DNA of 64,000 nucleotides from Thalia democratica (lineage: Eukaryota), in contig OZ241833.1 in assembly GCA_965202585.1 (NCBI GenBank), positions 3,658,001 to 3,722,000 of the forward strand, in the 5' to 3' direction. Position 1 is the first letter of the stretch. Each line of letters begins with the position of its first letter. The notes beneath the pieces are model-generated. The model searched no databases. It saw nothing but the letters and a program-made list of their open reading frames with translations, and had not been told where the DNA came from. Of the stretch, positions 36,629-57,949 are shown one piece after another. The position numbers were made by a program, and so were the translations under genes.

Positions 36629-36742
36629 ATCAATTCAAATTTCTAAATGTGTGAATTTTTTCTTGTTTATGAAGAAAGGGTGTTTTTTATCTTCCAACAA
36701 AAAGGCAGAGGAGAAGTAGAGTGACGATTCTCTTTCAACAGT

Positions 36743-36755
36743 GGAGAAGAGGAAG
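36743..36755 (+). other. Polypurine tract directly 5' of the LTR
   Basis: GGAGAAGAGGAAG abuts TGTAAC at 36756. Confidence 0.7.
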
Positions 36756-37102
36756 TGTAACAGGATATCAAGTTGCACTTGATTACTGTTTAAATTTGGT
36801 TGGAAGTTTTGAGCTAAAAGTTCATTCAAGCGTTAAGAGAAAGCTGGCAAGGTCAAGTTTTATACTGATGCAAGTTTAATACAGTTGACAAAAGGAGAAA
36901 ATAAAGTGCAGACCAGAAACCCTGATGCAACATTGAGTTATGGAATGTTATATATAAGCTGATACAACAGACAGATGGGGAGATTCTAGCCACAGCCTGC
37001 TGCAGTAAACGTGATAATGAAGAATAGACATTTATATTGTTTTCTTGTGTTATATAAAGTGTTTTTTGATTAGTATTATTTTTATAAGTATTTCTTAGTT
37101 AC
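36756..37102 (+). mobile_element. Truncated LTR (first 347 bp), left arm of the viral cassette
   Basis: Starts TGTAACAGG, has TATATAAG at 36951, and is the reverse complement of 38655-39001 with about 3 mismatches. Confidence 0.85.
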
Positions 37103-37115
37103 TCCATATATATAC

Positions 37116-38374
37116 TCAATATTAGCCCATCCGAGCCTTTCCAGAGATTACCGGACTACGTGACCTCACGCATTAGATCCGTATCTTTCCCCAGCGGCCC
37201 TGCAGAAAGTGAAAGAACCACGTTGCTTAGTCAAGCTCGAGCTATCTGTTCTTTCTCACAGGGTGTCTCAAGAAGCCTCACGGTCTACGAGGGGGAGTGC
37301 CCTCCTATTTACTTCCCATCTCAGATATCTATCACAGCAGAAGTGGTTCTGTTCGCCAATGGCAACTTACAACCAGACCTGGTGCCCTATTTGCTGGGAT
37401 GTGTTATTATAGGTGAAGTGAGCGAGGAATCTGAGCTTTCCCCCATCATTTCCAAAGCCCTGGGGAATTGGATGTCCCTGCTCCCGATGACATGGGAGTT
37501 CCCCTACTGAAACGTCATCCTGAGATCAAAGAACAAGTAAAGGGAAAGTTTGAAGAAGCTCCCGAAGTCAGCTCCAATAGTGCCAGTTGGTGGGGGAAAG
37601 AAGCTCTTAAAGACATCGTTGAGTTTCTGATTTCCAACATAATCCTCCAAGATTCCATGATGGAAAGTAAGGTTTCGGCTCTTGATGATAGATTGAAGAA
37701 ACTGGACATATCCGACAACATCAAGAAATTGGGCTCTAAGAGACCTAGGATTCAGCAGGAAGAGTTTGTGGCCCATTTCTTGATAGGATTAGTTTCAAAA
37801 TCCCTTGGGGGGTTCACTGGAAAGTTGGCTTATTCCTTTGCGAAGAGGAAAGGCAATAAGGCTGTCAATGTCTCCAACATGACTGGAGATGAGAAGATGA
37901 TTCTTTCATTGATGGCTGCAGCTCATGCAAAGATGCTCCCTGACTTCGGGAGGGTGAATGCCATTTTCAAGAAAGTTCTCGAAGAAATCAACAACTTTAA
38001 AGATAAGTTCGGAAATCCTTATTGGGATTACACAAGAGTGCATTACAAAGAAGGGGCTCCAGAGAAAGAGTACATAGATGCCTTCACTTATGTTATGGGA
38101 AATCTAGGGGAAACACGAGTGTTAGAGCAGACAAATTCTACTCGCCAAATAACCAATCTCAAAGTCTATTAGCTGAATCAGACTATCGATGAACCAAAAT
38201 CAGTCAACTGCTTTCACATTGAACAATCCCAGTGCAACGATGGCAACTCCCGGTGGAAGCTTGTCCAAAAAAACCAACCAATCCCAAGTCAACTCGGCCC
38301 AAAGCAAGTTCGGAGGAACCGTTTCGCTCGCAAATCCCATCCCAAAACCGGTCTTCAATATTAGCCCACCCGAG
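37116..38374 (+). pseudogene. Candidate endogenous viral element: circularly permuted nucleoprotein-like gene (~407 aa when re-joined)
   Basis: Intron-less and more GC-rich than host DNA. Frames 37118-37490 and 37468-38172 join by restoring one C that is present in copy 2. ATG at 38189 leads in frame into the terminal repeat. YIDAFTYVMG resembles the mononegaviral N motif. Confidence 0.55.
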
Positions 38375-38381
38375 GACGCCA
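38364..38381 (-). other. Primer-binding site complementary to a tRNA-Asn 3' end
   Basis: Minus strand reads GGTTACA-AT-TGGCGTCCTCGGGTGGGC. Plus strand AGCCCACCCGAGGACGCCA matches 17/19 of the vertebrate tRNA-Asn(GTT) end AGCCCACCCAGGGACGCCA as recalled. Confidence 0.8.
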
Positions 38382-38383
38382 AT

Positions 38384-39001
38384 TGTAACCTACAGATGTA
38401 GGTACCTTTAATACTAAACTTAACTTATACTAAATAATGATACTAATAATACTTAGGCTACTCTATATAAAACTAGGCATGACATGAGTTAACATATTTT
38501 ATATAAAGAACAATTGCAAACACTAACAAATATGTAAAGAACATCAAATTAAGAAAATACTTTAAATGTGGTCAAAACCTTTACACAAGTTTTAATCTAG
38601 CAAGAATATACTTTAAGAATGTATAAAACAAAATACGAGTTAACTATTTAGAATGTAACTAAGAAATACTTATAAAAATAATACTAATCAAAAAACACTT
38701 TATATAACACAAGAAAACAATATAAATGTCTATCCTTCATTATCACGTTTACTGCAGCAGGCTGTGGCTAGAATCTCCCCATCTGTCTGTTGTATCAGCT
38801 TATATATAACATTCCATAACTCAATGTTGCATCAGGGTTTCTGGTCTGCACTTTATTTTCTCCTTTTGTCAACTGTATTAAACTTGGATCAGTATAAAAC
38901 TTGACCTTGCCAGCTTTCTCTTGACGCTTGAATGAACTTTTAGCTCAAAACTTCCAACCAAATTTAAACAGTAATCAAGTGCAACTTGATATCCTGTTAC
39001 A
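38384..39001 (-). mobile_element. Complete 618-bp LTR in 5'-LTR configuration (followed by PBS)
   Basis: TGTAAC...GTTACA termini, PBS 2 nt downstream, TATA box, and the PPT seen before the sister arm. Confidence 0.8.
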
Positions 39002-39669
39002 CCTTTTCAACGCTTTAACAAAGTGACAGAGTTATATTAAATTTAACTATGGATCATCTTAATCTTTATACTTAAGGTTTAAAACAATTTTAACATGTTG
39101 CTTTTTATTTTATAATAAATATAATTAGCCCTACCTTGAACACTGTGTACTTTTCAAGTTGATAGTTGCTGTAAATGTAAAACAAAAAAAAAGACAAATC
39201 ATTTATAACGATTAATGATAGTGCAGACACAAGCTGCATCTAGAACCATTGGGTTAAAGAATGATGAAAAATATGAATGGTCTGTTCAAAACAGAAAAGA
39301 CAATTGGGATAAATGGTTTCAATAACAATTTTCACTTTAAAAACAAATTGGATCAGGAAGGTGCCCCTTAGTTGTTGGTAATACCAGAGGAAATGTGAAA
39401 CCAGAGTACTGTCCATTCTTCCAAAATGAAAAAAAATAACCGACGCAGTTAGCCATCCTGGACCACACAAACGCAAGATGCGTCCAAACAAAAAGACTAC
39501 GCACGATGAGACACAACAAGCTGCTAGACATGATGTCGTGCTAGATCACATGATAAAAGCCTGAAGCAGCAAAGAGTGGATGCTGAAAAGATACGTCAGA
39601 GAGCCTAACATTAAAGGGGAAGGGGCAATTAGAAACTGAAGCCCGATATACCCAGCAATCAAAGATATC

Positions 39670-54780: not shown

Positions 54781-55618
54781 AATGTATATTTAAAACGCTT
54801 TAGTGTTCATAGTGAAAAAGATATTTTTATACTTATCAATAGTAACACTATGTGAAAAGAATTACTTCAAGTTGTGCAACAGTTGTTTGCAGAAGCCGAA
54901 ATAGTAAATTAAAAAAATGTATTGTTTATTATAAAGCTGTAACCTTAGGTACTTCTTAAACATGGTGACACAGTAATAGTGGATATAACAACTATAAAAT
55001 ATTTTTTGTCCGTTAAAAGACACAGCTTAAGAGAAAATTTCCGCTTTATTTCTGCTCTACTCTATTTAGAAGCACAACTAAAATACCTAACAATATTTTT
55101 TTGCTGGAGATGATTTTGTGAATACTTGATAAATAAGGTACGTAACTATATACAAAAAATAGTATACAAAACATTTAGTAAAATAATGATTGACTGTGGA
55201 GAAGCACTAATACTATCTCGGGATCGAACTGCATCCTGAGGGGAGCACGGTTCAAGTAAAAAATTAAAGGAAAGGAAAGTTACATATTTATTTAGACAAA
55301 TCTTAAAGTCTTGATTATTGATTTATTTATGTAGGCAATTTCAGACAAGATTCATGAATTATAATATTAATAAGTAAATTTATAGTTAAGAAACTACGTA
55401 ATTATTATACTATCTTGAAAGATCTCTAAGCAGATTTAAATAACTAAGTTTGTTTCATTAAAATAAGAGCATTTTAGAACTATATATACTAAAAAAGCTT
55501 TATGTTAATTGTGGCAAAATATGTATTCATATTTTAAAGCCTTTTAAAGCATAAATTTTGAAAAAACAGCCAATACCATTTGTACTATCTGCAATGATAG
55601 TATTAAAAAAAGTACCTT

Positions 55619-55965
55619 TGTAACAGGATATCAAGTTGCACTTGATTACTGTTTAAATTTGGTTGGAAGTTTTGAGCTAAAAGTTCATTCAAGCGTTAAG
55701 AGAAAGCTGGCAAGGTCAAGTTTTATACTGATGCAAGTTTAATACAGTTGACAAAAGGAGAAAATAAAGTGCAGACCAGAAACCCTGATGCAACATTGAG
55801 TTATGGAATGTTATATATAAGCTGATACAACAGACAAATGGGGAGATTCTAGCCACAGCCTGCTGCAGTAAACGTGATAATGAAGAATAGACATTTATAT
55901 TGTTTTCTTGTGTTATATAAAGTGTTTTATGATTAGTATTATTTTTATAAGTATTTCTTAGTTAC
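55619..55965 (+). mobile_element. Truncated LTR left arm, cassette copy 2, preceded by target CCTT
   Basis: AGTACCTT-TGTAACAGG; near-identical to 36756-37102. Confidence 0.85.
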
Positions 55966-55987
55966 TCCATATTACTCCATTTATATA

Positions 55988-56731
55988 TTCAATATTAGCC
56001 CATCCGAGCCTTTCCAGAGATTACCGGACTACGTGACCTCACGCATTAGATCCGTATCTTTCCGCAGCGGCCCTGCAGAAAGTGAAAGAACCACGTTGCT
56101 TAGTCAAGCTCGAGCTATCTGTTCTTTCTCACAGGGTGTCTCAAGAAGCCTCACGGTCTACGAGGGGGAGTGCCCTCCTATTTACTTCCCATCTCAGATA
56201 TCTATCACAGCAGGAGTGGTTCTGTTCGCCAATGGCAACTTACAACCAGACCTGGTGCCCTATTTGCTGGGATACTTATATTATAGGTGATGTGACTGTT
56301 ATTATAGGTGAAGTGAGCGAGGAATCTGAGCTTTCCCCCATCATTTCCAAAGCCCTGGGGAATTGGATGTCCCTGCTCCCCGATGACATGGGAGTTCCCC
56401 TACTGAAACGTCATCCTGAGATCAAAGAACAAGTAAAGGAAAAGTTTGAAGAAGCTCCCGAAGTCAGCTCCAATAGTGCGAGTTGGTGGGGGAAAGAAGC
56501 TCTTAAAGACATCGTTGAGTTTCTGATTTCCAACATAATCCTCCGAGATTCCATGATGGAAAGTAAGGTTTCGGCTCTTGATGATAGATTGGAGAAACTG
56601 GACATATCCGACAACATCAAGAAATTGGGCTCTAAGAGACCTAGGATTCAGCAGGAAGAGTTTGTGGCCCATTTCTTGATAGGATTAGTTTCAAAATCCC
56701 TTGGGGGGTTCACTGGAAAGTTGGCTTATTC
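55988..56731 (+). pseudogene. Second, 3'-truncated copy of the nucleoprotein-like insert
   Basis: Near-identical to 37116-37836. It carries a +22-nt difference near 56268-56300 but is intact at the copy-1 frameshift. Confidence 0.6.
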
Positions 56732-56733
56732 TT

Positions 56734-56802
56734 ATTATTTAGTATAAGTTAAGTTTAGTATTAAAGGTACCTACATCTGTAGGTTACAATTGGCGTCCTC
56801 GG
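56734..56802 (+). mobile_element. Inverted fragment of LTR 3' end plus PBS
   Basis: ...TGTAGGTTACA-AT-TGGCGTCCTCGG is the reverse complement of 38370-38438. Confidence 0.85.
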
Positions 56803-57121
56803 TTAAAGAATAACTAGTCTTTTAAATAACAGTTAAATATTACCAAGACACTATTTTACCCAAATAAGTTTTATTAGTGTATTACCTTTTATTTTGAAAG
56901 CAGTATTTATCACAATTTTATCTCACATTCCTATATTTTTGTTTTTTTTTATATACTGCATTTTATCTAGTAGTAGATTTAGAGAAATTTTACAACAAAT
57001 TGTGCATTTAATTTTTAAGAAGCAATACTCACATTTACTATATGCCCATTTAAAAGCCTTTGAGTTTGTACCTATAACCAGAATGAATAGGGGGTTAGGA
57101 AAACTAATAAGTCAAAATTGA

Positions 57122-57290
57122 ACTGACTAAATTATTGTCCAAAAAGTCAAAGTAGTTGTGATAAATATATGAACAAAAAGTCAAAACTGCACTGACAAAA
57201 TTATTGTCCAAAAAGTCAAAGTAGTTGTGACAAAATTATTAACAAAAAGTCAAAGTTGATATGACAAATTTCAGTAAAAAAGTCAAAATA
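57122..57290 (+). repeat. Degenerate ~33-bp tandem repeat (AAAAAGTCAAA core, 5 units)
   Basis: The core motif recurs at ~33-bp spacing with alternating unit variants. Confidence 0.75.
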
Positions 57291-57949
57291 AAAAAAACTA
57301 ACAAGGTATAAGTTTAAATAAGTCTTAAAAGTGGTGACTAATTTTATTTGAAAGTGAGTGATATTAGATTTATCTAAGGCTCTTAAATCTTAATAGCACA
57401 ATAAAAAAAGAAAATATTTATTAATAACTAAGACAGCAAAGACCAGTAACATGCTGAAAATTTTTGGAGTTTGTATTATAGGGGATTATTATATTAATGA
57501 TAGTGCAGACACAAGCTGCATCTAGAACCATTGGGTTAAAGAATGATAAAAAATATGAATGGTCTGTTCAAAACAGAAAAGACAATTGGGATAAATGGAT
57601 TCAATAACAATTTTTACCTTAAAAAACAAATTGGATTAGGAAGGTGCCCCTTAGTTGTTGGTAATACCAGAGGAAATGTGAAACCAGAGTAGTGTCCATT
57701 TTGCAAAAATGGGAAAAAAAATCGACGCAATTAGCCATTCTGGACCACATAAACGCAAGCTGCGTCAAAACAAAAAGGACTACGCACGATGAGACACAAC
57801 AAGCTGCTAGACATGATGTCGATCACATGACAAAAGCCTGAATCAGCAAAGAGTGGATGCTGAAAAGATACGTCAGAGAGCCTAATATTAAAGGGGAAGG
57901 AGGCAAGGTGGAACTCAAGCCCGACATACCCAGCAATCAAAGATATTTA

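Follow-up and report, generated by a model that had tools for sequence, protein, structure and literature searches.

Capture of non-retroviral RNA by LTR elements is known for LCMV with IAP (PMC3205384), as chimeric virus–LTR cDNA and circular DNA in flies (PMC5857290) and as a nodavirus gene in a nematode Bel/Pao LTR element (PMC5177903). Copying of tRNA during second-strand synthesis has been described (PMC7472051; PMC6894440), and dead-end plus-strand strong-stop DNA of Ty3 accumulates free in particles (PMC5371799). Circular genomes and segments occur in the Chuviridae (PMC4384744). These reports enter here as excerpts, and the comparisons made with them below hold to that extent.

The window analysed here is a stretch of 64,000 nt (G000:C9:3658001–3722000) from a genome of 802 Mb. 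In it, a small retrotransposon is joined to a broken copy of an orphan, likely viral gene whose parts stand in swapped order. As in the LCMV–IAP, fly and nematode captures, foreign RNA was copied by the reverse transcriptase of an LTR element, joined to an LTR and integrated (PMC3205384; PMC5857290; PMC5177903). The insert is antisense, an orientation likewise found in the excerpted fly chimeras (PMC5857290). Unlike in the excerpts on those three systems, the donor is non-coding, the insert is permuted, both outer ends are U3 and the primer appears to have been the tRNA-copy tail of plus-strand strong-stop DNA. A literature search, run outside the original LCMV–IAP and Ty strong-stop papers and their supplements, found no description of strong-stop-tail priming on viral RNA or of a permuted EVE.

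In its native form the element consists of an LTR, an 11-nt primer-binding site (PBS), a non-coding internal region of ~1.23 kb, a polypurine tract and a second LTR, ~2.46 kb in all, and both LTRs have TG...CA ends. The LTR is 618 bp long; 40 scored of 2552 candidates match it, 39 of them, besides the present copy, at 96–98%. Five of five native insertions with both ends in hand have a 4-bp target-site duplication. No gag or pol was found, the longest Met-ORF being 72 aa (in one native copy). We take the element to be of the non-autonomous TRIM/LARD type, with which it shares the LTR–PBS–non-coding internal region–polypurine tract–LTR layout, the 4-bp duplication and the many copies; typical TRIMs are smaller than ~2.46 kb with 618-bp LTRs.

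At the locus, the last ~126 nt of the non-coding internal region (36631–36755, forward strand) end in the polypurine tract and are 96–98% identical to 13 native loci and 91% identical to one more; they meet an array unit by a deletion. They are followed by LTR nt 1–347, the U3 side, of a second element (36756–37102, forward strand), which stands head-to-head with a complete 618-bp LTR (38384–39001, reverse strand) and forms a 99% inverted repeat with 38655–39001. The complete LTR has no internal region upstream and looks like a plus-strand strong-stop product. The insert is antisense to it, and outward U3 lies at both outer ends. The left junction is made by a 13-nt filler (37103–37115), which matches neither LTR nor insert and has a longer variant in the second copy of the junction (copy 2, described below).

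The foreign gene lies on the forward strand, its middle part at 37116–38133 in two overlapping frames and its N-terminal 58 codons (MNQNQ...) at 38189–38363. Rereading of the sequence bore out several points of the preliminary description: a stop ending at 38172 is followed after 16 nt by an ATG at 38189 in the frame of the piece entering at 37115; 20-mers at 37116–37135 and 38355–38374, spaced by 1239 nt, differ by a single mismatch (T/C); and poly(A) is absent, the sole A/T run of at least 6 being A7 at 38267. The poly(A) at the insert end that marks a LINE-made processed EVE is therefore lacking. The permuted order is real, as the independent contigs of runs X1 (37116–38397) and X2 (37068–38363), from one sample, cross the stop–ATG joint, which is thus not an assembly artefact; they differ from the window by 11 and 15 letters, respectively. 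The X2 contig carries copy-2 variants and, as it may be a graph mosaic, was left out as a full-length copy 2. Contigs of X3 and X4 give partial coverage, that of X4 extending ~20 letters beyond 38133, which is insufficient to bridge the joint.

Other parts of that description had to be revised. In place of one ORF of ~407 aa, the window shows two out-of-phase overlapping frames, 37088–37510 and 37435–38172. The frame break lies between 37435 and 37510 and is probably post-insertion decay or an assembly slip in this copy, since natural copies vary in indels. The 20-nt repeat is not wholly a repeat of the insert: 11 bases of the second 20-mer belong to an 18-nt copy of tRNA-Asn, and the exact insert-to-insert overlap is 9 nt (37116–37124). 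The T/C mismatch arises because the second 20-mer holds tRNA sequence and the first viral sequence. Reverse transcription did pass the priming site again, as had been proposed, by 9 nt and not about 8. Because this exact overlap adjoins the best tRNA-matching site of the insert, it is not a matter of chance; MNQNQ...FNI was therefore contiguous with SPSEPF... in the template, and MNQNQ...FNISP is not a separate downstream gene.

The tRNA copy (38364–38381, reverse strand) reproduces exactly the final 15 nt of tRNA-Asn(GTT), followed by CCA. The tRNA pattern has 117 matches in the genome; all eight examined were tRNA-Asn genes, and CCA was absent from the four printed genomic tRNA-Asn genes. 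Its 3' tail matches the insert over 11 nt, with one wobble, at 37125–37135 (forward strand), the best sense position; the next best sense site and the best antisense site reach 8, and 11 was reached by 84 of 2000 shuffles. An LTR without a preceding internal region followed by 18 nt of mature tRNA has the appearance of plus-strand strong-stop DNA, and the tRNA copy with CCA and its 11-nt match mark the junction as made in reverse transcription. That the copy ends after 18 nt is presumably due to a stop of strand synthesis at methylated A58.

Such copies are not confined to this locus. The native PBS matches the tRNA over 11 nt in nine of 13 5' LTRs and over 12, 12, 14 and 5 nt in the rest, never over 18; three of 47 exact LTR ends continue into the tRNA copy. 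The exact tRNA-Asn 18-mer with CCA was found at 18 genome sites (L044–L061), behind LTR-like ends of several families. An inverted LTR adjoins it at seven of these, the present locus counted; slippage was repeated at one site, and two occupy the usual 5'-LTR position in larger elements. Five sites read further into the tRNA, with the base at position 58 wrong or missing, by which the modification of the tRNA is recorded in the germline. The tRNA itself was considered as a direct primer and rejected, because it shares its sense with the strand that matches and its CCA end is unmatched. The earlier proposal of priming at a PBS-like site is supported in a refined form, with the tRNA-copy tail of plus-strand strong-stop DNA as primer and coding-sense RNA as template, and we hold capture by plus-strand strong-stop DNA with high confidence. 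Like Ty1 and Ty3 strong-stop DNA, the product joins an LTR to a tRNA copy longer than the inherited PBS (PMC5371799). In the excerpted account 12 nt of tRNA-Met are copied by Ty3 (PMC5371799). The present element copied 18 nt of tRNA-Asn, sometimes reaching the anticodon, and its product, unlike the Ty3 dead-end DNA, went on to be elongated on other templates and became integrated.

A HMMER search of 1.84 billion representatives matched one protein, whose cluster consists of three unnamed ENA proteins (P0001–P0003, contigs of 1.6–1.76 kb); word searches for longer or further homologs added none beyond these. Identity to the insert is 65–70%, with 16–19 of 20 residues identical in blocks ending at RVLEQT (38133), where the similarity ends. 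The homolog extends for 85 aa after RVLEQT, 73 aa beyond the stop in the window, and this 73-aa acidic tail (23 D/E) has no match in G000. The ORF thus does not fill a circle with a whole gene, as had been supposed; this truncation is measured against one homolog cluster that is known from protein sequences and whose protein is N-terminally chimeric. The first 30 aa of P0002 match host sequence at L039:1501–1602 with 80% identity, which shows that P0002 is chimeric at its N-terminus; it is probably itself an insertion in a related host. The BLAST alignment to the homolog extends weakly up to the stop. The LKVY/LRIY likeness found there was rejected as homology, since it was reached by 1354 of 20 000 random stop-free 12-mers (null p ~0.07). 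Identity can also fall within the gene, 5 of 20 residues being identical at 37963–38022.

Base composition changes at the same place. A two-segment change-point was located at 38126–38132 from three of three start points (2-nat range 38109–38146), and 38134 scored ~2 nats above 38173 or 38189. The G content is 0.11 in 38134–38188 versus 0.25 upstream; five of 612 windows just upstream scored as leader-like, as did 44 of 326 from the 5' coding portion, and the composition test is a modest one. The permutation joint probably lies at ~38130 (likely range 38109–38146, best estimate 38126–38133, forward strand), where the change-point and the end of homology coincide. The segment 38134–38188 (forward strand) is likely to be the 5' leader of the foreign RNA. 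The stop at 38170–38172 with its 16-nt spacer is then probably an incidental stop in a leader of ~55 nt, since homology and composition switch at ~38130 while the homolog runs on for ~85 aa. With the joint at this position, a circle would not hold the whole gene.

The gene is quite likely to be viral, an origin inferred from a protein that has neither a family nor a fold match. The homology, profile and structure searches that had been suggested were run on the separate pieces and succeeded in part. Homology gave P0001–P0003, these unnamed proteins being the only protein matches that bear on an LTR-captured EVE. Pfam, Atlas and PDB profile searches gave no usable match, Foldseek against viral and PDB sets returned nothing at E ≤ 0.001, and the best hits of a VIA wide search (Z 5.8) were generic helical bundles. 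AlphaFold models of the pieces were mostly helical, with pLDDT values of 34 and 38. IMG/VR and JGI scans gave no match. The insert has a GC content of 0.45, a CpG value of 0.52 and a TpA value of 0.54, near those of a viral L fragment on C7 (0.42, 0.59 and 0.56) and unlike host DNA and the LTR; the GC content of window positions 1–27000 is 0.28. The gene has no introns. A helical protein of ~480 aa with an acidic tail would, we assume, suit a nucleoprotein, and the chances that it is the nucleoprotein of a divergent negative-strand RNA virus seem to us about even. The gene is not physically linked in the genome to either of the two L sequences described next, and the suggested link to chuviruses was not found for the insert.

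The same element made a second capture at G000:C7:31964351–31968066 (L034, L043), present as 1.4 tandem turns of a 2529-nt unit with an overlap of 99.8% identity. The unit comprises LTR nt 318–618, a tRNA-Asn copy reaching the anticodon and the L fragment, a 718-codon frame (Mononeg_RNA_pol, E 4.5e-51) with a GDNQ motif. It is 21–30% identical to 53 homologs; those that are named belong mostly to rhabdo-, lispi/arli- and fungal negative-strand viruses, and none among the 53 matches is named chuvirus. Its LTR portion stops at TTAGT, at a distance of 20 nt below a TATA box, which suggests that this capture would have been made by minus-strand strong-stop DNA on genome-sense RNA.

A near-full rhabdo-like L with several breaks is endogenous at G000:C1:23095298–23100480 (L040, L041, L063). 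It is 36–38% identical to two rhabdo-like L proteins and 29% to the C7 L, and carries a methyltransferase domain; no N-like or other viral gene was found within 10 kb on either side. An intron-free calpain-like protease frame (L062:3–1181, reverse strand; Peptidase_C2, E 6e-15; GC 0.45–0.53 in the first 1 kb) lies ~9 kb from it. At L070:2947–4656 (G000:C2:34460546–34462255) an LTR element carries a 570-codon env-like frame with a signal-like start and a C-terminal hydrophobic stretch, the first 145 aa of which match Rhabdo_glycop_FD weakly (E 0.011, below the cut-off). This locus was rejected as a further capture, because the env-like gene belongs to the LTR element itself.

The insertion lies in a tandem array of decayed, RT-bearing units of ~4.3 kb (approximately 29800–61000, forward strand; RVT_1, E 8e-11), which are 4–15% apart and stand in an AT-rich background. 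The array contains the junction twice. Copy 2 (55619–57490, forward strand) consists of LTR nt 1–347, filler, the first ~720 nt of the insert (55989–56729), the LTR 3' end, the PBS and the internal region to about nt 840. It shares the LTR–filler–insert junction with copy 1, the locus described above, and differs from it by seven substitutions in 718 insert nt plus two indels and by two substitutions in 347 LTR nt. Copy 2 holds nt 1–840 of the internal region and copy 1 nt 1104–1229. A 4-bp target-site copy at 39002–39005 (forward strand) has its partner at 55615–55618, directly before copy 2, and an empty array unit (33973) has the four bases once. Integration into host DNA is seen in this split duplication and in the run contigs that cross the insert. 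Given the shared junction, the split duplication and the complementary internal parts, the two copies are taken for the two halves of a single insertion that was bounded by U3 on either side. Their array flanks are ~5% apart, so that a single insertion would require one duplication and two deletions. A precedent is a dimer at G000:C9:37457668–37464347 (L036, L033, L064), in which a full copy of the element and an LTR of another family stand head-to-head with the 18-mer between them, and one 4-bp duplication is shared by the two outer U3 ends. The partner in this dimer has LTRs of 777 bp and a 705-aa ORF with a cold-shock domain; LTRs in the dimer are identical. Single-letter variants in the foreign gene are synonymous in 4 of 15 cases, against an expected fraction of 0.28. 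The gene decays neutrally and shows no sign of selection, and its co-option was for now rejected on these counts.

On balance, we lean towards plus-strand strong-stop DNA having been primed on a linear, coding-sense RNA of an undescribed virus and having jumped once on the same molecule; a linear template with an internal jump stands, taken by itself, at about an even chance. The seven extra tRNA bases of the copy cannot pair with the element's own PBS and would therefore form a free tail, which would anneal to the foreign RNA at 37125–37135. A helper reverse transcriptase would copy ~230 nt to the 5' end of the RNA and transfer to an internal site ~85 codons ahead of the natural stop (the joint at ~38130), on a downstream RNA piece left by RNase H. 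The enzyme would run off where RNase H had first cut, 20 nt into the original hybrid, and this would produce the terminal overlap. The cDNA end would be linked, with the filler in between, to LTR nt 347 of a second element; integrase would put this two-U3-ended DNA into the array, which would afterwards break it up into copies 1 and 2. Had a different RNA molecule been copied after the transfer, the chance of ending 20 nt inside the hybrid would be ~2–3% (20–40 of ~1240 positions); such an end is expected if the enzyme comes off the starting RNA where RNase H first cut it. The jump on a linear RNA, named earlier as an alternative, fits better than the circle proposed at the outset, with the difference that it leads to an internal site and not from end to end.

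The terminal overlap cannot by itself separate a circle from a jump on the same molecule, since both yield it; the jump is favoured because jumps from the tRNA-copy tail are common in this genome. A tentative second choice as the template is a ~1.24-kb RNA, covalently closed, from an undescribed negative-strand-type virus, defective or, less likely, a natural mini-segment. The locus would then preserve in the germline a single rolling turn of a reverse transcriptase around a viral RNA circle, primed by the dead-end DNA of a retrotransposon. Its defective form, in which the 5' end of a truncated viral RNA was joined to an internal break and copied for one turn plus 20 nt, is doubtful. It fits the truncation and requires no second jump to stop 20 nt past the priming site, and viral cDNA in flies is, in the excerpts of that work, preferentially templated by defective genomes (PMC5857290). 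However, it requires an RNA ligation, which leaves no sequence trace, in a genome where reverse-transcriptase jumps from the same primer tail are frequent. The RNA at the joint folds weakly (-3.6 to -7.5 kcal/mol, values without a shuffle control), and a panhandle or hairpin at the joint was rejected.

A template of DNA, an earlier circularized cDNA of the viral RNA on which strong-stop DNA was primed, is improbable. The LTR–tRNA–L unit that is repeated in tandem for 1.4 turns on C7 would suit it, and circular virus–LTR DNA is described in the fly excerpts (PMC5857290). Against it, the joint holds no LTR, tRNA or filler sequence (no match of more than 12 nt among the loci compared), and with RNase H absent nothing would explain a stop 20 nt past the primer. 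Similarly improbable is a non-viral gene, whether the retrocopy of a host circRNA, an accessory gene of a retroelement or a symbiont gene. The gene has no viral homolog, its sole homolog also borders host-like repeat sequence, and circRNA-derived pseudogenes reportedly exist. DNA and protein searches of G000, an assembly that may be incomplete, nevertheless gave only the two copies and no parent host gene; the 1.84 billion representatives held a single match, and GC, CpG and TpA resemble those of the C7 L fragment and differ from those of host DNA and the LTR.

A complete natural circular segment with one ORF of ~407 codons and a 16-nt spacer, chuvirus-like or subviral, which had been the initial suggestion, is weakened to a very slight likelihood. 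The permuted order, the absent poly(A) and the nearly full coding capacity agree with it, as does the weak LKVY/LRIY likeness as far as the stop, and excerpts on the Chuviridae report circular segments (PMC4384744). Like those circular genomes, the insert has a head-to-tail joint and possibly a negative-strand virus origin. Unlike them, it has no sequence or fold match, its single ORF is truncated and its circularity is putative. The homology stops at 38133 and the composition shifts there, ~40 nt ahead of the stop and not at the stop or the ATG; ~85 C-terminal residues are missing relative to the one homolog cluster, the LKVY likeness has a null p of ~0.07, and 16 nt would be scarcely enough space for promoter or gene-end signals. 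The chuvirus genomes in the excerpts moreover have 2–3 major ORFs, with no 1.2-kb circle among them (PMC4384744). An end-to-end jump on a linear mRNA with very short UTRs, the gene naturally stopping at 38172, has as little likelihood: LTR reverse transcription normally begins with a transfer from the 5' to the 3' end, according to the excerpted account (PMC6894440), but the insert has no poly(A) or gene-end run and the truncation counts against it.

A permuted insert by itself is thus no proof of a circular virus. The locus flags an undescribed virus lineage, through an orphan gene family and an L at no more than 30% identity to 53 homologs. LTR-mediated conversion of RNA into germline DNA is usually inferred from nearby LTRs only, and the junctions at this locus still show which primer was used, a copy of a modified tRNA, where it annealed, which strand was the template, where copying ran off and with which ends the DNA integrated. 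They lead to a testable rule, by which elements with a PBS shorter than their tRNA copy would capture RNAs that match the surplus tail.
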